64,000 bases of DNA, taken from Reclinomonas americana ATCC 50394 (lineage: Eukaryota). The translations under genes and the position numbers were made by a program. Under the pieces are notes generated by a model that was not told the origin of the DNA, ran no database searches, and was given only the letters and a program-made list of their open reading frames with translations. Positions 1,382 to 24,639 of the stretch are shown here, piece after piece. The stretch lies in the NCBI GenBank assembly GCA_048213135.1, contig PS015181.1, positions 1-64,000 on the forward strand, read 5' to 3'. Each line of letters begins with the position of its first letter. The stretch's first letter is position 1.

Positions 1382-1614
1382 CTGTGACACACACAGTTGT
1401 GCCTGTCGCGGTTGCAGTCTATATCCTTCCTCCAGTCACCGCTCTGGCCCACCCTCCTTTTTCTCTCACACACAGTTGTGCTGTCAATGTAATCTGAGGG
1501 TTCTTACTTGCAGCCGCAGCTGTGCGTACTCCCTCTCCTCACTCCCTTCTCTCTCTTTCTCTGAAGCTCGAAAGAAAGCGCGTCTAATCCCTTCCTCTTT
1601 ATTTGCCACAACAG

Positions 1615-2909
1615 AACGACTACGACATCTTGCGCATGCAGCGCATCTCCATGCCTGAGGGCACCGACGTGCCCGTCCTCGACAAGGGAGTGTTCATGCC
1701 CGCGCAACATCTCGCGGCACTGCTGCATCGCAATCGTATCGGCGTCGCGAACTTTATTCTTGGTGTGCTTCTGAATCCCCATATCGCCACCACCACCTCC
1801 ACCGCAGCTGACGTGTTGTCGCGACTGTGCAGCTCGAACTGCCGTGGTGGAGCGCACCAGAGAGAACTCCATGTATCACTTCGGCTCGAATGAGTTGACC
1901 GAGGGTATCCGGGTTCAAGTGCGCACTGTGTTGTTGTCGCAGCAGTGCGTGCTCGACGACGACGGCGAGTCGCAGTACTTTCATGCGTTGCGTGAGGCAG
2001 AAAAGAAAAGTGGGGGGGAGGATGGGAGAGAGGAGTGGGATGCATGCTTGACAATTCTTTTTGTCACTCCCTTGCTTATCTTTGTGCGCGCAGATACACG
2101 ATCCGCATCACCAACGAGAGCCACCCGTATACCGTACAACTGGTGCGTTTCTCTCGTGTTGCCTTTCTTTTTCTCCGACATCCACACTGACGTTGACATC
2201 GCAGCTGAACCGACATTGGGACATTGCTAGGCATGTAGACAGTGAGTTGCAGGTAGTCGAGGGCCCCGGTGTCGTTGGTGAGCAGCCGGTGCTGGCAGTT
2301 GCGTTATGCGGTCGGCGTTGGAGATTTTCGCCTCCATATTGGGCCAACTCAGTGTCTGTGTCTCGCAGCCTGGAGCGTCGCACGAGTACACGTCGTATAG
2401 CGGGCACATTAGCGACGCTGGGGTGAGTGTGTGTGCGGTGGGAGATGTCGCGGGTATTGCTGTTGAACTCACTGCCCGCGCAGTTCATGCAAGGCTTTTT
2501 CGAGTTCACTACGTTGGTGCGTGAGTGTATGTCTTTTTCCCTGCTGTGACGCGCAGTTGATCGCTAATTTGACTTCTCCACAGAATGGTGCCTGTCGCGC
2601 AGCTGGCGTGTGTGTGTGCGGGAGAAAGAAATAGAGAAAAAGACAGAAGGAGTCGGATGAGGGGAGAAGAGAGACAACAAGAAACAGATTACAGACATGA
2701 ACAGGAGCGTCAAGCACAGACAAAGTACAAGAGAAGTGTCACAGAAAGATAGCAAAGAGCAGAAAGACACAGAGTGCGTTCGTGTTTAGTGTGTGTGTTT
2801 CTCAATGGTGTTATGTGCAGGTCCACACACTGGCCGGCACTTCAACGCGATCGTCGGCCGCTTTCTGTTGAACGCCCATCTCGAAGTCGGTGACGGTGTG
2901 CAGGGTTGA
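1615..2909 (+). CDS. ApaG (DUF525) domain protein, 5' end missing (POLDIP2/FBXO3/ApaG-like)
   Basis: Spliced translation TEGIRVQVRTVLL...YFHAYTIRITN...VQLLNRHWDI...VEGPGVVGEQPVLAPGASHEYTSY...MQGFFEF...FNAIVGRFLL matches the ApaG motifs. Stop at 2907-2909. Confidence 0.85.
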
Positions 2910-3150: not shown

Positions 3151-3630
3151 ATGGGCGGCGGCGGCGGCGGCGGCGGCTACACTCCCCCACCCCCACCGGT
3201 GGTGCACACTGTGTTGCGTTGTGTGTGTGAGAGAGAAATGAGAAATGAGAGAGAGAGAGAAAGTGAAAGTGCGCGCTCTCCGATATTCCGTGCACTCACA
3301 CTCATTCGACGCACACAGCTCTCCGCATATCACGGTCGCGGGCCAGAACATCCACACGGTGAGTGCGGTGACAAGAGTGCATCCAGAACGCACTCTCACT
3401 CCTATTCCTTCTCCGACTCTCACGCATAATGCACACACGCTTGCACACACTCACTCGCTCTCTCTCTCTCTCTCCCACACACACACACACTCACTCACTC
3501 CACGCACACACACACACAAAGTCTCCACCACTCAGCCTCTCCTCCTCCCTCTCCTTCTCCCTCTCTCCTTCTCCCTCTCTCCTTCTCCCTCTTGCCTTCT
3601 CCCTCTTGCCTTCTCCCTCTTGCCTTCTCC

Positions 3631-4691: not shown

Positions 4692-5658
4692 ATGCACAAA
4701 CCTCTCTTCTGCAAGATCATCCGCGGCCACACCGATTTTGTGCGCTCGGTCGCCATCTCGCCCGACGGCCAGCACATTGCCAGTGGGAGTGGCGACGAGA
4801 CCGTGCGAGTGTGGTCCATGGCGAATGGAGAAGAAGTGCAGCAGCTGGAGGGACACACCGCAGAGGTGTTTTCTGTCGTGTTCACCCCCGACGCTCGCCA
4901 CGTTGTGAGTGGCAGCTGGGACATGACGGTGAGAGTGTGGTCGCTGGCGAGTGGTGCAGAGGTGCGGCGGCTGGAGGGGCACACTGGGGCGGTGCGATCG
5001 GTGGCTGTTTCACCGTGCGGTCGGCTGGTGGTGAGCGGGAGTTATGACAAGACAGTGCGAGTGTGGTCATGGGCAAGTGGAGAAGACGAACAAGTGCGGC
5101 GCTTGGAGGGGCACACGGGAGTGGTGTTTTGCGTCGCCNNNNNNNNNNNNNNNNNNNNNNNNNNNNNNNNNNNNNNNNNNNNNNNNNNNNNNNNNNNNNN
5201 NNNNNNNNNNNNNNNNNNNNNNNNNNNNNNNNNNNNNNNNNNNNNNNNNNNNNNNNNNNNNNNNNNNNNNNNNNNNNNNNNNNNNNNNNNNNNNNNNNNN
5301 NNNNNNNNNNNNNNNNNNNNNNNNTTTGGAGAGCGGAGAGGAGGTGCGACGGCTGGAGCGGCACACCTCGTGGGTGCTTTCAGTCGCCGTCTCTCGCTGC
5401 GGTCAGCACGTCGTGAGTGGAAGCTACGACAAGACTGTGCGAGTGTGGTCTTCGCCACGTGGCGTCGCTCAACTCGAGCTTGACGTGTCTCGGTTGGCCA
5501 TGCGCGCGGTTCAAGAGATGCAGCGTGAGGCCTTGGAGGAGGAGGCGGAAGAACCGGATTCACGGTGCCTGCCAGAGATGGTTCTCCGCTGTTTTATCGT
5601 CGAGGAGGCAGCTGTCGTTCTTCATCGATGTCACAGTAATCCTCGGTTGTGCATCTGA
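4692..5658 (+). CDS. WD40 + conserved-tail protein, copy A (gap 5139-5324)
   Basis: GH...WS repeats on both sides of the gap; ends LELDVSRLAMRAVQEMQRE...PDSRCLPEMVLRCFIVEEAAVVLHRCHSNPRLCI. Confidence 0.88.
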
Positions 5659-6711
5659 GGTGCGGATGCTTCTGAAGAGAGAAAAAGAGGGAAGTGGTCC
5701 AAGTAAACCCGTCAAAAATGAAAGTGGAATCGATATGGATAATGAATGGCCTTTCGTTGCCAGTGTGGTGGCAGTAGGAGCAGCTGATACGCACGGGGAG
5801 CCACTACACGTCCACAACAACAGATGGAGACTTTGCACTGTGGTCCCACGTCCCCTCAACACACNNNNNNNNNNNNNNNNNNNNNNNNNNNNNNNNNNNN
5901 NNNNNNNNNNNNNNNNNNNNNNNNNNNNNNNNNNNNNNNNNNNNNNNNNNNNNNNNNNNNNNNNNNNNNNNNNNNNNNNNNNNNNNNNNNNNNNNNNNNN
6001 NNNNNNNNNNNNNNNNNNNNNNNNNNNNNNNNNNNNNNNNNNNNNNNNNNNNNNNNNNNNNNNNNNNNNNNNNNNNNNNNNNNNNNNNNNNNNNNNNNNN
6101 NNNNNNNNNNNNNNNNNNNNNNNNNNNNNNNNNNNNNNNNNNNNNNNNNNNNNNNNNNNNNNNNNNNNNNNNNNNNNNNNNNNNNNNNNNNNNNNNNNNN
6201 NNNNNNNNNNNNNNNNNNNNNNNNNNNNNNNNNNNNNNNNNNNNNNNNNNNNNNNNNNNNNNNNNNNNNNNNNNNNNNNNNNNNNNNNNNNNNNNNNNNN
6301 NNNNNNNNNNNNNNNNNNNNNNNNNNNNNNNNNNNNNNNNNNNNNNNNNNNNNNNNNNNNNNNNNNNNNNNNNNNNNNNNNNNNNNNNNNNNNNNNNNNN
6401 NNNNNNNNNNNNNNNNNNNNNNNNNNNNNNNNNNNNNNNNNNNNNNNNNNNNNNNNNNNNNNNNNNNNNNNNNNNNNNNNNNNNNNNNNNNNNNNNNNNN
6501 NNNNNNNNNNNNNNNNNNNNNNNNNNNNNNNNNNNNNNNNNNNNNNNNNNNNNNNNNNNNNNNNNNNNNNNNNNNNNNNNNNNNNNNNNNNNNNNNNNNN
6601 NNNNNNNNNNNNNNNNNNNNNNNNNNNNNNNNNNNNNNNNNNNNNNNNNNNNNNNNNNNNNNNNNNNNNNNNNNNNNNNNNNNNNNNNNNNNNNNNNNNN
6701 NNNNNNNNNNN

Positions 6712-7514
6712 AGGGACACACAGATGAGGTGTGGTCTGTCGCCGTTTCTCCCGACGGTCGGTACGTTGTGAGTGGGGGTAGGGACAGCACAGTGCGAATC
6801 TGGCAGTTGGCGAGTGGCGATGAGGTGAGACGATTGGAGGGACACCAAAGTGTGGTGTTTGCTGTCACCGTCACTCCCGACGGCGAACGCATTGTCACTG
6901 GCAGTGAGGATAGGACTGCGCGGGTGTGGTCGTGGGCGAGTGGCGAGGAAGTGTTACGATTCGAGGAGCACACTGAGCGGGTGCGATCAGTCGCTGTCAC
7001 TCCCGACGGTCAGCACGCAGTGAGTGGATGCGAAGACGGCATTGTGGGTATTTGGTCTCTGGCGAGTGGCGAGGAGATGCGAATGTTGGATCACAGTCGT
7101 TTGGTGTATTCTGTTGCCGTTACTCCCGATGGCCAGCACGTCGTGAGTGGGTGCTGTGACAAGACTGTGCGTGTGTGGTCCTTGGTGAGTGAAGAGCAGG
7201 AAGCACGGCAACTGAGAGGTCACACAAAAGAAGTGACTTGTGTTGCCGTCTCTCGCTGCGGCCAGCACATTGTTAGCGGCAGCTGGGACGATACTGTGCG
7301 AGTGTGGTCCTCGCCATGTGGCCTCGCTCGGCTGGAGCTCGCTGTGGCTCGGTTGGCCATGCGCGCGGTTCAAGAGATGCAGCGTGAGGCGAAGATGGAG
7401 GAGGAAGAACCGGATTCTCGGTGCCTGCCGGAGATGGTTCTTCGTTGTTTCATTGTCGAGGAGGCAGCTGTCGTTCTTCATCGGTGTCGCAGTGATCCTC
7501 GGATGTGCATGTGA
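6712..7514 (+). CDS. WD40 + conserved-tail protein, copy B (5' end in gap)
   Basis: Five visible WD40 repeats and the same C-terminal tail; no introns in the visible part. Confidence 0.9.
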
Positions 7515-7789
7515 GCTTCAGAAGAGAGGAAGGAAGGCTCCATGCGAGCCCGTCAAGAATGAAAGTGGTATCGACATTGACAATGCACGGCCGTGCGACG
7601 CACATGCTGTGGTGGTAATAGGAGCAGCTGATACACATGGGAAGTCAATCAGGCATCGCAGTCAGACGTTTGTGGTCCCACGTCCTTTTCATCCACAAAC
7701 CCACTCTCCGTCTCGCACCTCTCTCTTGTGTGTGTTTTCATCCTCCTTGATCTCTCCCTTCTCCCTGCATCTCCCTTCCTACTTCCTTC

Positions 7790-8887
7790 ATGTCATCAAA
7801 GTCTCTCTCCTGCAAGATCCTCCACGGACACACTCACTATGTTTGGTCCGTCGTCGTCACTCCCGATGGCATGCACGTGGTCAGTGGCAGCAGCGACAAG
7901 ACCGTGCGAGTGTGGAACATGGCGAGTGGCGAAGAGGTGCGACGGTTGGAGGGACACTCATATCATGTGCTGTGTGTAGCCGTCACTCCAGATGGCCAGG
8001 AAATAGTTAGTGGGAGCGAGGATCGCACAATTCGCCTGTGGTCACTCGCGAGTGGGAGGGAACTGCGGCGGTTGGAGGGTCACACTGGCTCGGTGTGGTC
8101 GGTCGCCTTGTCTCCTGATGGTCAGTTCGTTGTGAGTGGGAGCAGCGACAGGACTGTTCGCTTGTGGTCATTGGCGAGTGGATCGCGAGTGCGGCGGTTG
8201 AAAGGGCACAGTGGAAGTGTAATGTCCGTCGCCGTCGCTCCCGATGGTCAATACGTTGTGAGTGCGGGCGATGACATGACTGTTCGAGTGTGGCCCATGG
8301 CGAGTGGCGAACAAGTGCGACGGCTGGAGGGACACATTAGTCTGGTATGGTCTGTGGCCGTCGCGCCCGACAGTCGACGCGTTGTGAGTGGGAGCTGGGA
8401 CAGGACTGTTCATGTGTGGTCGCTGGAGAGCGGAGAAGGAACAACACGGCGACTGGTGGGGCACACTGATTTCGTGTGGTCTGTCGCCGTCACTCCCGAC
8501 GGTCAGCACGTTATTAGTGGGAGTCAGGACAAGACCGCTCGTGTTTGGTCTCTGGCACGCGGAGAGGAGGTGCAACGGTTAGAAGGACACGACCAGGCAG
8601 TGTCGTGTGTCGCCGTCTCTCCAAGCGGCCAGCACATTGTCACAGGCGGCTGGGATAAGACTGTGCGAGTGTGGTCCACACCGTGTGGCCTCGCTCGGCA
8701 GGAGCTTGATGTGGCTCGGTTGGCCATGTGCGCAGTTCAGGAGATCCAGCGCGAAACGATGGAGGAGGAAGAAGAACCGGCCGCGGATTCACGGTGCCTG
8801 CCTGAGATGGTTCTCCGCTGTTTCATTTTAGAGGAGGCAGCTGTCGTGCTACATCGATGTCGCTGTGACCCCCGGTTATGCATGTGA
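7790..8887 (+). CDS. Intronless 7xWD40 + conserved-tail protein, copy C (365 aa)
   Basis: Seven complete ~42-aa WD40 repeats plus the tail in one uninterrupted ORF. Confidence 0.95.
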   Translation: MSSKSLSCKILHGHTHYVWSVVVTPDGMHVVSGSSDKTVRVWNMASGEEVRRLEGHSYHVLCVAVTPDGQEIVSGSEDRTIRLWSLASGRELRRLEGHTGSVWSVALSPDGQFVVSGSSDRTVRLWSLASGSRVRRLKGHSGSVMSVAVAPDGQYVVSAGDDMTVRVWPMASGEQVRRLEGHISLVWSVAVAPDSRRVVSGSWDRTVHVWSLESGEGTTRRLVGHTDFVWSVAVTPDGQHVISGSQDKTARVWSLARGEEVQRLEGHDQAVSCVAVSPSGQHIVTGGWDKTVRVWSTPCGLARQELDVARLAMCAVQEIQRETMEEEEEPAADSRCLPEMVLRCFILEEAAVVLHRCRCDPRLCM

Positions 8888-9203
8888 GGTGCAGAGTGCT
8901 TTGTAGAGTGAGGGAAAATCCAAGTGAACCCGTACGCGTCAAGAATGAAAGCGGGATCGACATTGACAATGCACGGCCTTGCACAGCACATGCTGTGTTG
9001 GCTATCATGCAAAGGGGCAGCTGATACACATGGGTAGTCAACCAGCCTCGCGTTTCTCTCAACAATAGGAGACGTCGCTTGTGGTCCCTCGTCCTTTTCA
9101 TCCACAAACACGCGAGCGCAAACATCTCTCTCTCACACGTCTCTCTTTGTGTGTGTGTTTCCATTCCACTCTGCTCCCACCCTCCTCTCCTCCCACTCCC
9201 CTC

Positions 9204-10295
9204 ATGTCATCTCCGCCTTTCTCCTGCCAGATTATTCGTCTGCACAGTGATTTGGTGCGTGCTGTTGCCTTCACTCCCGATGGCATGCACGTAGTCATTG
9301 GCAGCAACGACAAGACAGTGCGAGTGTGGAACATGGCGAGTGGCGAAGAGGTGCGACGGTTGAAGGGACACTCATCTCCTGTGCTTTGTGTGGCCGTCAC
9401 TCCAGATGGCCAGCACGTTGTGAGTGGGAGCGAGGATCGCACAATTCGCCTATGGTCACTGGCGAGTGGGAGAGAACTGCGGCGGTTAGAGGGTCACACT
9501 GGCTCGGTGTGGTCTGTCGCCGTTTCTCCCAACGGACTGCACATTGTAAGTGGCTGCTATGACAGCACAGTGCGAATTTGGCTGTTGGCGAGTGGCGAGG
9601 AAGTGAGACGGTTGGAGGGGCACAGGAGTGCGGTGCATGCTGTCGCCGTCACTCCTGATAGTCAGCACGTTGTGAGTGGGAGTAATGACTGCACAGTGAG
9701 AGTGTGGTCCATGGCGAGTGGCGAAGAAGTGAGACGGTTGGAAGGACACAATAGCTTAGTGTGGTCTGTAGCCGTCACTCCCGACAGTCGACACGTTGTG
9801 AGTGGGGGCTGGGACAACACAGTGCGAGTGTGGTCCTTGGGGAGCGGAGAAAAATTGTGGCGACTGGTGGGGCACACTGATCTCGTGTGGTCTGTCGCCG
9901 TCACTCCCGACGGTCAGCACATCGTGAGCGGCAGTGCTGACAAGACCGCACGTCTTTGGTCTCTGGCACGCGGAGAGGAGGTGCAACGGTTAGAAGGACA
10001 CGACAAGGCAGTGTCGCGTGTCGCCGTCTCTCCATGCGGCCAGCACATTGTCACTGGCGGCTGGGACAAGACTGTGCGAGTGTGGTCCTCGCCATGTGGC
10101 CTCGCTCGGCAGGAGCTTGACGTGGCTCGTCTGGCCATGCGCACAGTTCAGGAGATGCAGCGTGAGGCGACGACGGAGGAGGAAGAAGAACCGGATTCAC
10201 GGTGCCTGCCAGAGATGGTTCTCCGGTGCTTTATCGTCGAGGAGGCAGCTGTCGTTCTTCATCGGTGTCGCAGTGATCCTTGGATGTGGATGTGA
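9204..10295 (+). CDS. Intronless 7xWD40 + conserved-tail protein, copy D (363 aa)
   Basis: Start MSSPPFSCQII aligns with the paralogue starts; seven repeats plus tail. Confidence 0.93.
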   Translation: MSSPPFSCQIIRLHSDLVRAVAFTPDGMHVVIGSNDKTVRVWNMASGEEVRRLKGHSSPVLCVAVTPDGQHVVSGSEDRTIRLWSLASGRELRRLEGHTGSVWSVAVSPNGLHIVSGCYDSTVRIWLLASGEEVRRLEGHRSAVHAVAVTPDSQHVVSGSNDCTVRVWSMASGEEVRRLEGHNSLVWSVAVTPDSRHVVSGGWDNTVRVWSLGSGEKLWRLVGHTDLVWSVAVTPDGQHIVSGSADKTARLWSLARGEEVQRLEGHDKAVSRVAVSPCGQHIVTGGWDKTVRVWSSPCGLARQELDVARLAMRTVQEMQREATTEEEEEPDSRCLPEMVLRCFIVEEAAVVLHRCRSDPWMWM

Positions 10296-10580
10296 GTTGC
10301 AGTGTCTGGATGCTTCAGAAGAGAGAAAAAGAGGGAAGTGGTCCAAGTAAACCTCAATTCAGTTGCGATCGAAGTTGACAATGCACGACGTTGTGACGCC
10401 AGTGCGGTGGTAATGGGAGCAGCTACTAAACATGGGAAGTCAACCAGCCATCGCAGATAGACGTTGCTTCGCAGTCCCAGGTCCTTCCAAACCGTCGCAC
10501 CTCTCTCTTGGTCCTCTCTTGTGTGTTTTCATCCTCCCTGATCTCTCCCTTCTCCCTGCATCTCCCTTCCTACTTCCTTC

Positions 10581-11669
10581 ATGTCATCTGCGCCTCTCTC
10601 CTGCAAGATCCTTCGCGGACACACTCACTTTGTTTGGTGTGTCGCCATCACTCCCGATGGCATGCACGTGGTCAGTGGCGGCAACGACAAGACCGTTCGT
10701 GTGTGGTCCATGGCGAGTGGCGAGGAACTGCAGCGGCTGGAGGGGCACTCGTCTTCCGTAGTGTGTGTAGCCATCACTCCCAGCGGCATGCACGTTGTGA
10801 GTGGGAGCAGCGACAACACAGTGCGAGTATGGTCACTCGCGAGTGGAGAGGAACTGCGGCGGTTCGAGGGACACACAGATGTGGTGTGGTCTGTCGCCGT
10901 TTCTCCCGATGGTCAGTACGTTGTGAGTGGGAGTAGAGACAGCACAGTGCGAATTTGGCTCTTGGCGAGTGGCGAGGAAGTGAGACGGTTGGAGGGACAC
11001 ACTGCCATGAACTCGGTTGCTGTAACTCTTGATAATCAGCACGTTGTTAGTGCTGGCGATGACAGCACCGTGAGAGTGTGGTCGATGGCGAGTGGCGAAG
11101 AAGTGCGACGGCTGGAGGGACACAGTAGTACAGTGTGGTCAGTGGCCGTCACCCCCGACAGTCGACACATTGTGAGTGGGAGCTGGGACAAGACTGTGCG
11201 AGTGTGGTCGCTGGAGAGCGGAGAAGAGTTGCGACGGCTGGTTGGGCACGCCAGATGGTTGCAGTCTGTCGCCGTCACTCCCAATGGACAGCATGTGGTG
11301 AGTGGCACTTCTGACGGCACCGCACGAGTGTGGTCTCTAGCAAGCGGAGAGGAGGTGCAACGGTTAGAAGGACATGACAAGGCAGTGTCGTGTGTCGCCG
11401 TCTCCCGCTGCGGCCAGCACATTGTCAGCGGCAGCGGCGACAAAACTGTGCGAGTGTGGTCCTCGCCATGTGGCGTCGCTCGACTCGAGCTCGATGTGGC
11501 TCGGTTGGCCATGCGCGCAGTTCAGGAGATGCAGCGTGAGGCGATGATGGAGGAGGAGGAAGAACTGGATTCTCGGTGCCTGCCAGAGATGGTTCTTCGT
11601 TGTTTCATTGTCGAGGACGCAGCTGTCGTTCTTCATCGGTGTCGCAGTGATCCTCGGTTGTGCATGTGA
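10581..11669 (+). CDS. Intronless 7xWD40 + conserved-tail protein, copy E (362 aa)
   Basis: Seven repeats plus tail, single ORF. Confidence 0.95.
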   Translation: MSSAPLSCKILRGHTHFVWCVAITPDGMHVVSGGNDKTVRVWSMASGEELQRLEGHSSSVVCVAITPSGMHVVSGSSDNTVRVWSLASGEELRRFEGHTDVVWSVAVSPDGQYVVSGSRDSTVRIWLLASGEEVRRLEGHTAMNSVAVTLDNQHVVSAGDDSTVRVWSMASGEEVRRLEGHSSTVWSVAVTPDSRHIVSGSWDKTVRVWSLESGEELRRLVGHARWLQSVAVTPNGQHVVSGTSDGTARVWSLASGEEVQRLEGHDKAVSCVAVSRCGQHIVSGSGDKTVRVWSSPCGVARLELDVARLAMRAVQEMQREAMMEEEEELDSRCLPEMVLRCFIVEDAAVVLHRCRSDPRLCM

Positions 11670-14878: not shown

Positions 14879-20770
<5,892 letters not shown>

Positions 20771-21582
20771 NNNNNNNNNNNNNNNNNNNNNNNNNNNNNN
20801 NNNNNNNNNNNNNNNNNNNNNNNNNNNNNNNNNNNNNNNNNNNNNNNNNNNNNNNNNNNNNNNNNNNNNNNNNNNNNNNNNNNNNNNNNNNNNNNNNNNN
20901 NNNNNNNNNNNNNNNNNNNNNNNNNNNNNNNNNNNNNNNNNNNNNNNNNNNNNNNNNNNNNNNNNNNNNNNNNNNNNNNNNNNNNNNNNNNNNNNNNNNN
21001 NNNNNNNNNNNNNNNNNNNNNNNNNNNNNNNNNNNNNNNNNNNNNNNNNNNNNNNNNNNNNNNNNNNNNNNNNNNNNNNNNNNNNNNNNNNNNNNNNNNN
21101 NNNNNNNNNNNNNNNNNNNNNNNNNNNNNNNNNNNNNNNNNNNNNNNNNNNNNNNNNNNNNNNNNNNNNNNNNNNNNNNNNNNNNNNNNNNNNNNNNNNN
21201 NNNNNNNNNNNNNNNNNNNNNNNNNNNNNNNNNNNNNNNNNNNNNNNNNNNNNNNNNNNNNNNNNNNNNNNNNNNNNNNNNNNNNNNNNNNNNNNNNNNN
21301 NNNNNNNNNNNNNNNNNNNNNNNNNNNNNNNNNNNNNNNNNNNNNNNNNNNNNNNNNNNNNNNNNNNNNNNNNNNNNNNNNNNNNNNNNNNNNNNNNNNN
21401 NNNNNNNNNNNNNNNNNNNNNNNNNNNNNNNNNNNNNNNNNNNNNNNNNNNNNNNNNNNNNNNNNNNNNNNNNNNNNNNNNNNNNNNNNNNNNNNNNNNN
21501 NNNNNNNNNNNNNNNNNNNNNNNNNNNNNNNNNNNNNNNNNNNNNNNNNNNNNNNNNNNNNNNNNNNNNNNNNNNNNNNNNN

Positions 21583-21828
21583 ATCACTGCTCCCACTAAT
21601 AATGTGACGACCATCAGGAGTGATGGCAACTGAAGTCACCCAGTCAGTGTGCCCCTCCAATCGCCGCACTTCGTGCGCACTCGCCAGCGACCACACTCTC
21701 ACAGTGCGATCACCACTCCCACTCACGACGTGCTGCCCATCTGGAGTCACGGCGATGGACCACACAATAGAGAAGTGTCCGCACAGACACTTGCAGAAAA
21801 CAGAAGCCGGAGAAGCAGCTGCGGTCAT
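21583..21828 (-). CDS. WD40 family protein, copy F (only 5' part visible)
   Basis: MTAAASPASVFCKCLCGHFSIVWSIAVTPDGQHVVSGSGDRTVRVWS..., closely similar to the copy G start, then runs into a gap. Confidence 0.82.
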
Positions 21829-22007: not shown

Positions 22008-23096
22008 TCACAGTCGGAGACTCTCATTCATGGCGCAGCGGTGAATAACGACGGCCGCCTCTTCGACAATGAAGCAGCGCAGCACCATCTCTGGCAGACA
22101 GCGTGAGTCCGGCTCTTCCTCTTCCCTCTTCTCGCGCTGCATCTCTTGGACAGCACGCATGGCCGATCGAGCCACTTCAAGCTCCAGTCGAGCAAGGCCG
22201 AATATTGTGGACCACACTCGCAATGTCTTGTCGGCACCGCCACTCACAATGTGCTGGCCATCGGGAGTGACAACGATTGAGTGCACCCAGTCATTGTGTC
22301 CCTCCAGCCGTCGCACCTCTTCTCCACTTGCCAGCGACCACACTCGCAAGCTGTTGTCGTTACTCCCACTCACAACGTACTTCCCGTCGGGAGTGACAGC
22401 GACTGCTTGAACTGTGTCAGCGTGCCCATTCAACCGTCGCACATCCCTGCCACTTGCCAGTGACCACACACGTATTGTTCGGTCCCTGCCTCCACTCACC
22501 ACATGCTGACCATCTGGTGTGCTAGCGACACAGTGCACCGGCTGAATGTGCCCCCTCAGTCGTCGCACTTCTTCGCCACTCGCCAGGGACCATACATGCA
22601 CACTTCCGTCTCGACTGGCACTCAAGACATGCTTGCCATCGGGGGTGACGGTGACCTCGCTCGCATGTGCCTCAAACCGTCGCACTTCCTTTCCATTCGC
22701 CAGTGACCACACACGCACTGTACCGTCGTCGCTCGCGCTAACAACGTGTTGACTGTCGGGAGTGACAGCAACAGACACCACCCCCCAGGTGTGTCCCTTC
22801 AGCCGTCGAACTTCTCGTCCACTTGCCAGAGACCACACTCGCACTGCTTCATCATCACTGCCGCTCACGATGTACTGCCCGTCGGGGGTGACAGCGACAG
22901 AGCGCACCCAGTCAGTGTGCCCCTCCAACCGTTGCACTACATGTCCACTCGCCAGCGACCACACTCTCACAGTGTGATCAGCACTCCCACTGATCACGTA
23001 ACGACTATCAGGAGTGACGGCGACGGACCACACAGTAGTGGAGTGCCCATACAGACACTTGCTGAAGAGAGCAGGCGGAGAAGCAGCTGCGGTCAT
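22008..23096 (-). CDS. Intronless 7xWD40 + conserved-tail protein, copy G
   Basis: MTAAASPPALFSK, seven repeats, then LARLELEVARSAMRAVQEMQRE...PDSRCLPEMVLRCFIVEEAAVV. Confidence 0.93.
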   Translation of the reverse strand: MTAAASPPALFSKCLYGHSTTVWSVAVTPDSRYVISGSADHTVRVWSLASGHVVQRLEGHTDWVRSVAVTPDGQYIVSGSDDEAVRVWSLASGREVRRLKGHTWGVVSVAVTPDSQHVVSASDDGTVRVWSLANGKEVRRFEAHASEVTVTPDGKHVLSASRDGSVHVWSLASGEEVRRLRGHIQPVHCVASTPDGQHVVSGGRDRTIRVWSLASGRDVRRLNGHADTVQAVAVTPDGKYVVSGSNDNSLRVWSLASGEEVRRLEGHNDWVHSIVVTPDGQHIVSGGADKTLRVWSTIFGLARLELEVARSAMRAVQEMQREKREEEEPDSRCLPEMVLRCFIVEEAAVVIHRCAMNESLRL

Positions 23097-23302: not shown

Positions 23303-24639
23303 ATGTCATCCGTTCCCCCTCTCCACTGCAGCGTTCTCCGCGGGCACGCGGGTTNNNNNNNNNNNNNNNNNNNNNNNNNNNNNNNNNNNNNNNNNNNNNN
23401 NNNNNNNNNNNNNNNNNNNNNNNNNNNNNNNNNNNNNNNNNNNNNNNNNNNNNNNNNNNNNNNNNNNNNNNNNNNNNNNNNNNNNNNNNNNNNNNNNNNN
23501 NNNNNNNNNNNNNNNNNNNNNNNNNNNNNNNNNNNNNNNNNNNNNNNNNNNNNNNNNNNNNNNNNNNNNNNNNNNNNNNNNNNNNNNNNNNNNNNNNNNN
23601 NNNNNNNNNNNNNNNNNNNNNNNNNNNNNNNNNNNNNNNNNNNNNNNNNNNNNNNNNNNNNNNNNNNNNNNNNNNNNNNNNNNNNNNNNNNNNNNNNNNN
23701 NNNNNNNNNNNNNNNNNNNNNNNNNNNNNNNNNNNNNNNNNNNNNNNNNNNNNNNNNNNNNNNNNNNNNNNNNNNNNNNNNNNNNNNNNNNNNNNNNNNN
23801 NNNNNNNNNNNNNNNNNNNNNNNNNNNNNNNNNNNNNNNNNNNNNNNNNNNNNNNNNNNNNNNNNNNNNNNNNNNNNNNNNNNNNNNNNNNNNNNNNNNN
23901 NNNNNNNNNNNNNNNNNNNNNNNNNNNNNNNNNNNNNNNNNNNNNNNNNNNNNNNNNNNNNNNNNNNNNNNNNNNNNNNNNNNNNNNNNNNNNNNNNNNN
24001 NNNNNNNNNNNNNNNNNNNNNNNNNNNNNNNNNNNNNNNNNNNNNNNNNNNNNNNNNNNNNNNNNNNNNNNNNNNNNNNNNNNNNNNNNNNNNNNNNNNN
24101 NNNNNNNNNNNNNNNNNNNNNNNNNNACGCACGTGGTGTGCGGCGGCCGTAACGGGGCGATACGATTTCGATCACTGGCAAGTGGCAAGGATGTGTGGCA
24201 GCAGGTGTCGGGACCCGCTCACTGGGTGAAAAGCGTGGTCGTCTCCCCCAACGGCCTGTACGTGGTGAGTGGAAGCGAAGACAAGACAGTGCGGTTGTGG
24301 TCGTTGGCGAGTGGCGATCAAGTGCAGCTTCTGGAGGGACACACCAGCTGGGTGCAGTCTGTTGCCATCTCGTCGGATGCTCAACACGTGGTCAGTGGCA
24401 GCTGGGACACCACTGTACGTGTGTGGTCTTCTCCATGTGGCCTCGCGCGCCTCGAACATGACACGGCACGGGCGGCCATGCATGCCGTCCAACAAATGCA
24501 GCTGGCGACTGAAGACGAAGAAGAGGACCGAGTGCCGGATTCGCGCTGTCTCCCAGAGATGGTGCTTCGTTGCTTCTTGGTCGAGGAGGCAGCGGTTGTG
24601 GTGTACCGCAGTCAATGCGATCCGCGGCTGTGCTTGTGA
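23303..24639 (+). CDS. WD40 + conserved-tail protein, copy H (middle in gap)
   Basis: MSSVPPLHCSVLRGH before the gap; WD40 repeats and PDSRCLPEMVLRCFLVEEAAVV after it. Could be parts of two genes. Confidence 0.8.

Follow-up and report, generated by a model that had tools for sequence, protein, structure and literature searches.

The present study examined a tandem array of WD40-repeat genes in a window of 64,000 nucleotides from Reclinomonas americana ATCC 50394 (assembly GCA_048213135.1, contig PS015181.1, positions 1 to 64,000 of the forward strand), together with the wider gene family to which the array belongs. As a preliminary description of the sequence had proposed, five WD40 genes lie head to tail on the plus strand at 4692–11669, three of them complete and two cut by assembly gaps. 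Copy 1 (4692–5658), a WD40 propeller plus tail, is interrupted by an N gap at 5139–5324, and copy 2 is represented by its 3′ part (6714–7514), its 5′ end falling inside a second N gap (5865–6711); copies 3 (7790–8887; 365 aa, seven WD40 blades and a tail), 4 (9204–10295; 363 aa), and 5 (10581–11669; 362 aa) are complete, with unbroken open reading frames (ORFs) whose coding DNA is 80–83% identical. The spacers, at 5659–5864 (running into an N gap), 7515–7789, 8888–9203, and 10296–10580, are homologous to one another, all six pairs aligning with scores of 127–276 against shuffle maxima of 26–39, and stop-to-stop lengths of 1373, 1408, and 1374 bp agree with the proposed unit of about 1.4 kb. 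No alignment to the array spacers was found in the DNA after copy 5.

Each complete copy consists of seven WD40 repeats (seven Pfam PF00400 stretches in 3/3) followed by a tail of about 65 aa, again as described beforehand, and on the AlphaFold model the array genes are predicted to encode seven-bladed WD40 β-propellers. The model closes as a seven-bladed ring, at residues 7–294 of copy 5, with a predicted local distance difference test score (pLDDT) above 90 across the propeller and a template modelling (TM) score of 0.97 to seven-bladed structures; the top structural matches were seven-bladed WRAP designs and a Thermomonospora WD40 domain (~42% identity). An AG stands ahead of the first blade; the in-frame, ATG-started segment at the N-terminus is nonetheless conserved family-wide and provides the first (closing) strand of the modelled propeller. 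The claim that the copies lack introns stands as far as the unbroken frames of copies 3–5 reach, open frames being its whole basis, and the companion claim that neighbouring genes are split by introns holds for a minus-strand, putatively FKBP12-like gene at 24.8–25.7 kb with at least seven exons. The repeats had also been called very regular, whereas identity between the blades of a gene is only moderate (57–61% aa in the array; mean 56% across 89 genes). The nearest neighbour of a sampled blade was the same blade of another gene in 120/150 cases and a blade of the same gene in 1/150, so the blades keep their positional identity, and the within-gene homogenisation typical of fungal HNWD proteins, which the preliminary description had named for their highly self-similar repeats, was not observed.

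The window holds more of the family than the five array copies counted initially: three further members lie at 21.6–24.6 kb, namely a 5′ fragment (21583–21828, minus strand; remainder in the N gap 20771–21582), a complete gene of 362 aa with 67% nucleotide identity to the array copies (22008–23096, minus strand), and a 3′ fragment (24128–24639, plus strand) after the N gap 23355–24126. Across the assembly, two degenerate tail motifs hit 1058 and 1098 sites (reversed controls, 0), and a query with the tail returned 1548 candidates, of which all 150 of the 150 scored had E-values of about 1e-19 or better. The assembly holds two haplotypes, contig C25 being the second haplotype of the window (85–98% identical over aligned blocks). 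Because many family loci are present in pairs and some once, the haploid copy number probably lies between roughly 550 and 1100. The window haplotype carries five array copies vs. four on C25, where the last copy matches window copy 4 at 96% vs. copy 5 at 74% over its first 30 codons and window copy 5 at 90–98% over most later bins; it thus joins parts of copies 4 and 5 in one chimeric gene, as unequal crossing-over predicts. These results support the recent amplification suggested earlier and indicate that it is ongoing. In one fetched stretch (L077, 4190–5170, plus strand), several short partial tail repeats that look like recombination debris lie between complete copies. The first 70 stretches fetched plus the window contained 163 tail loci, of which 123 touched neither a gap nor an edge; intact ORFs made up 108 of those 123 tail-bearing frames. 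Codon analyses were performed on 106 genes that passed a length and motif filter, a sample that favours close relatives of the query. Literature searches, conducted at the level of titles and the beginnings of abstracts, returned no description of the family.

Variation among the 106 genes is concentrated at five hypervariable positions per blade, which have a mean entropy of 3.1–3.8 bits vs. ≤2.2 bits elsewhere. Four of these (−25/−23 and −7/−5) flank the conserved Val and the conserved Asp of the blade and match the arrangement of codons 7, 9, 25, and 27 in the HNWD repeats of Podospora, which are reported to be positively selected and situated on the interaction surface (PMC1805685). Judged by the repeat register and the Podospora literature, and not by mapping onto coordinates, the variable positions would form the top face of the propeller. 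The scaffold and the tail are under purifying selection: the ratio of nonsynonymous to synonymous rates (omega) was 0.24–0.33 for the scaffold and 0.16–0.21 for the tail overall, 0.33 and 0.21 in 31 disjoint pairs, and 0.29–0.33 and 0.16–0.18 by IQ-TREE, with 51/58 tail sites significantly purifying. At the variable sites, omega was 1.8–1.9 against the gene-wide synonymous rate, a rate that was exceeded at 29/35 variable, 0/238 scaffold, and 0/58 tail sites. Given that silent differences at unchanged variable codons were not raised (0.045 vs. 0.058; 0.143 vs. 0.172) and that many codons differed at two to three bases (32% of variable vs. 6.5% of scaffold), the gene-wide rate is probably the fairer yardstick. 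Targeted hypermutation of the variable codons was ruled out because silent change was raised neither there nor at neighbouring codons. The recognition repertoire that had been put forward as a possibility is supported as a pattern, by a variable predicted top face and purifying selection on scaffold and tail.

The tail proved more informative than the propeller, a point that the preliminary description missed. In copy 5 it occupies 11457–11666 (plus strand), and a model built from 111 sequences predicts a hairpin in which an acidic linker, differing in length between tails, connects two long helices (pLDDT 88; 54–76 for the tail in the full-length model). Both helices are conserved down to 25% identity between tails, helix 2 at nearly every position. 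The RCF residues seem invariant, but the motif-based collection biases this impression. Among 1.84 billion representatives, only three proteins matched the tail: a protein derived from an expressed sequence tag (EST) of the jakobid Reclinomonas americana, which has the features of an ordinary family member, and two proteins from unassigned contigs that also combine a propeller with the tail. Because an EST-derived member exists, at least one jakobid transcribes the family. No usable match to the tail was found in the ESM Atlas, 0/19 pattern matches on viral contigs and 0/592 metagenome contigs were confirmed, and word-index searches for longer proteins, which are weak evidence, likewise gave no usable match. 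Among the matches listed, fold searches recovered generic hairpins only (best Z 9.2, root-mean-square deviation 2.6, 67 aligned), and a second fold search gave no match with E under 0.001. Neither the Pfam F-box nor the Pfam SOCS_box matched any of the 111 tails, and SOCS_box had no match in the genome. The invariant Glu of the tail occupies the leucine position of the BC box in our own alignment to that motif, and the second helix may resemble a cullin box; the genome encodes an Elongin C-like gene, two Skp1-like genes, and 24 F-box-like matches. A weak Foldseek row had raised the hairpin of the endosomal sorting complex required for transport I (ESCRT-I; Vps23/Vps37) as a candidate, which was rejected: the tail profile scored below 2 bits on the Vps23 and Vps37 frames of the genome. 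Comparison with a single intron-containing sequence of Vps23/Vps37 type by hhalign, a weak test, gave 0.2%, and a collection of Vps23 relatives sought for comparison yielded none.

The tail also occurs outside the young arrays. A variant tail motif was found at 69 sites in the assembly (control, 1), and among the 30 divergent tail loci tallied, 23 had blade-profile matches, two more had Pfam propeller evidence, and five had neither. Since a CAG acceptor-like site stands directly before the tail in 12/29 divergent loci, the sequence suggests that the tail sits there in a last exon of its own; it is likewise found at the end of older intron-split propellers. A search for the ubiquitin-conjugating (E2) family gave 82 matches, from which 20 regions were fetched, and one E2-fold gene was found to end in the tail (profile E 2e-15 for the tail; UQ_con E 1e-4), with Asn in place of the Arg of RCF. 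In another stretch (L154, 4758–6432, plus strand), a single gene model joins a propeller exon, the tail, and two MLLE domains, a type known from PABP and a HECT ligase. Together with the E2-fold gene, this carrier is a weak pointer to the ubiquitin system. Found as it is on intron-split genes, the tail has long been part of this lineage. Several divergent E2-like exons lie about 10 kb from a WD40 array in stretches L199 and L201 (G000 C78 84.7–88.2 kb; C303 69.5–72.1 kb), and no tail was found there. Tandem non-WD40 genes in L091 (1363–2724, minus strand) and L137 have an internal tail followed by a conserved helical extension; they had no Pfam match, and the Atlas gave weak leads to unnamed viral clusters. 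Long tail-bearing frames in L141 (3124–5601, plus strand), L145, and L152 also had no Pfam match and are possibly very divergent propellers.

A possible source of the propeller lies within the same genome, which carries long NACHT-pentapeptide-WD40 genes of NOD-like receptor (NLR) type, each a single ORF and intronless by that criterion. Three such frames of about 1100 aa each were examined (L299, 1128–4457, plus strand; L300 and L301, both minus strand), and none has the tail. Their N-terminal domain had no Pfam match, and an R-x4-H motif in two of them is suggestive of a HEPN RNase. Two of the NLRs stand head-to-head with divergent tail-bearing genes, the NLR blades share 77–82% identity with the best family blade vs. 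64–68% with bacterial blades, and one NLR has two probable alleles whose identity is 96% over the NACHT part but 71% over the WD part. The best 80 bacterial loci reached up to 52% identity to the propeller, and all 80 lacked the tail. A quick unrooted tree with 61 rows separated 16 young members and most of the intermediate ones from 22 bacterial rows with support of 85 and 81 (unstarred), and 9/11 intron-split members fell beyond a starred branch, where long branches meet; the family does not nest inside bacteria in this tree, a result that is not decisive. Relatives with introns exist, as does the candidate intronless NLR source of the blades. One subfamily has, in 6/6 copies examined, a GT-AG intron of 113–142 nt that falls between two codons ahead of the first blade; upstream of this subfamily, at about 1400–2550 (plus strand) of L071, lies an intron-split gene whose last exon presumably resembles an H-type lectin end.

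Neither retroposition nor horizontal acquisition, the two origins first offered, is supported as stated: the tail occurs on intron-split genes and an intronless NLR family shares the blade type, while the tail is lineage-specific, is missing from the 80 bacterial loci, and belongs to genes that the tree does not place within bacteria. Because the blades resemble those of the genome's own NACHT-WD40 NLRs more than bacterial ones, neither retroposition nor direct transfer is required. The simplest history would be fusion of an intron-free NLR-type propeller with a lineage-specific tail that already existed, followed by amplification of the whole gene. Further back, the blade may have come from bacteria by way of the NLRs. 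New propellers are reported to arise repeatedly from single blades (bioRxiv 10.1101/2022.03.13.484165).

Around the array, the window contains small intron-split genes in tandem, with starts at 3151, 11906, 12666, and 13360 (plus strand), which begin with a glycine run and have a short, acidic last exon; the other haplotype seems to be one copy short. Farther downstream, at about 14900–20800 (plus strand), an intron-rich gene resembles, we assume from its translated frames, WDR24/Sea2.

We tentatively favour, among the explanations considered, an interchangeable repertoire of substrate adaptors with a variable binding face and a constant tail, probably linked to ubiquitin. Under this explanation, the variable positions of the predicted top face would bind different, possibly foreign, proteins, the constant helical tail would dock the propellers on a single common partner, for which a component of the ubiquitin system is the likeliest candidate, and the captured proteins would be delivered to ubiquitin disposal. 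The young family, which is very large and continues to recombine and of which the array is a single cluster, would have arisen by the joining of an NLR-type propeller to the older tail, and foreign ligands would drive the variation at the binding sites. The ubiquitin-linked part of the explanation is drawn from the combination of a variable face, a constant box, and tandem birth and death, which is the pattern of nematode F-box genes, and from the E2-fold and MLLE carriers.

Several results weigh against the adaptor explanation. When the sites' own synonymous rates were used, omega at the variable sites was 0.86–1.03; the 12 closest pairs showed no excess (0.60–0.69); and fixed effects likelihood (FEL) was positive at only 1/35 variable sites. 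The sites tested had moreover been picked because they vary, and gene conversion conflicts with the assumption of one tree in the selection fits. Diversifying selection at the variable sites is thus likely but model-dependent and not cleanly shown. On the side of the tail, Pfam and PDB sequence searches gave no match, and identity with an F-box was rejected, hhalign of the 111 tails against the genome's 12 F-boxes giving a probability of 0.2%. F-boxes and SOCS boxes have three short helices, unlike the two long ones of the tail model. The E2-fold link consists of one gene (two probable alleles), apparently without the catalytic cysteine.

A more ambitious version of the adaptor explanation, which we consider possible but rather doubtful, is an intracellular repertoire comparable to antibodies, with several hundred binders in each haplotype, in which NLR propellers were grafted onto a lineage-specific box that recruits its own ubiquitin machinery, the E2-fold protein with the tail being one possible route; this would be a new class of E3 ligase adaptor and the protist equivalent of the F-box arsenals that serve immunity in nematodes and plants. 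Little is known about cell-autonomous immunity in free-living protists, and with one conserved module common to several hundred binders, the partner of the tail would define the pathway for the whole repertoire. If the version holds, NLR sensor domains have been reused as stand-alone receptors, and the short list of ubiquitin-ligase adaptor boxes may gain an addition.

The close kinship of the blades with those of the NLRs (77–82% vs. 64–68% to bacterial blades), the contrast between the NACHT and WD parts of the probable NLR alleles (96% vs. 71%), and the two NLRs head-to-head with tail-bearing genes would also suit free-standing sensors or decoys that work with NACHT-WD40 NLRs, the tail relaying ligand binding to the NLR or to another death or signalling effector and not to ubiquitin. 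We regard this as unlikely: the three NLR frames examined lack the tail, no P-loop ORF stood beside the young arrays fetched, and the tail predates the NLR-type propeller and is present on unrelated proteins. Those rare non-propeller carriers, together with the predicted two-helix hairpin and the near-complete conservation of helix 2, could instead mean that the tail is a homotypic pairing module whose hairpins form four-helix bundles, yielding combinatorial two-headed binders, with the E2-like and MLLE carriers recruited as effectors. Strict conservation on all sides would be just as expected if the tail had one heterologous partner, and a predicted tail homodimer scored 0.00 in a run without an alignment and with an uncertain partner fold, which is evidence neither way; we rate homotypic pairing as slightly less likely than a link to the NLRs.

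The remaining alternatives concern the forces behind the expansion. Recognition could serve a non-immune end, such as the handling of prey- or symbiont-derived proteins or the regulation of many host targets via some partner, and the purifying selection on scaffold and tail, combined with omega near 1 at the variable sites under several models, fits such subfunctional diversification without an arms race; the size of the family, its rapid turnover between haplotypes, and its NLR kinship are, however, typical of conflict-driven families, and we find a non-immune role improbable. Least probable in our estimation is a largely neutral expansion, in which unequal crossing-over between short tandem units would have multiplied genes that individually do little. 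Frames that lack a full ATG-started ORF (15 of the 123 gap-free) or an in-frame tail (36/203 family-type frames, through edges, gaps, or frameshifts) and the tail fragments present as short repeats at one locus are what it would lead one to expect, but omega of 0.16–0.33 over tail and scaffold, the 51/58 tail sites under significant purifying selection, and the existence of an EST-derived member all argue against it.

Compared with known systems, the family shares with the HNWD/NWD genes of Podospora anserina (het-d, het-e) regular WD40 blades, variable codon pairs around two conserved residues, and exchange by unequal crossing-over (PMC1805685, PMC4986451). It differs from them in that its ORFs (about 345–380 aa) consist of propeller and tail only, with no NACHT or effector domain, and in its fixed seven blades, positional blade identity, lack of concerted evolution, hundreds of genes vs. 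about 10, and a C-terminal tail that HNWDs do not have; its blade type recurs in the NACHT-pentapeptide-WD40 genes of the same genome. WD40-SOCS-box receptors of WSB type have a similar layout, in which the propeller is followed by a C-terminal helix, a variable linker, and an LP-led helix, whereas the tail of the family lacks a Pfam SOCS_box match, has two long helices, and carries Glu at the BC-box leucine position. Nematode F-box receptors likewise comprise hundreds to more than 1000 tandemly duplicated genes, in which the constant adaptor part is under purifying selection and the substrate-binding part is variable, and recognition of foreign proteins has been proposed for them (PMC8665587); the tail of the family, by contrast, lies at the C-terminus, differs from an F-box when profiles are compared, and is restricted to a jakobid-like lineage. 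The recently amplified WRAP-type propellers of bacteria and fungi are also built from similar blades (bioRxiv 10.1101/2022.03.13.484165), although single blades are amplified there and whole genes here. By these comparisons, the family falls outside both the HNWD NLRs and the F-box proteins, yet would work like a repertoire of substrate receptors with an HNWD-type face.

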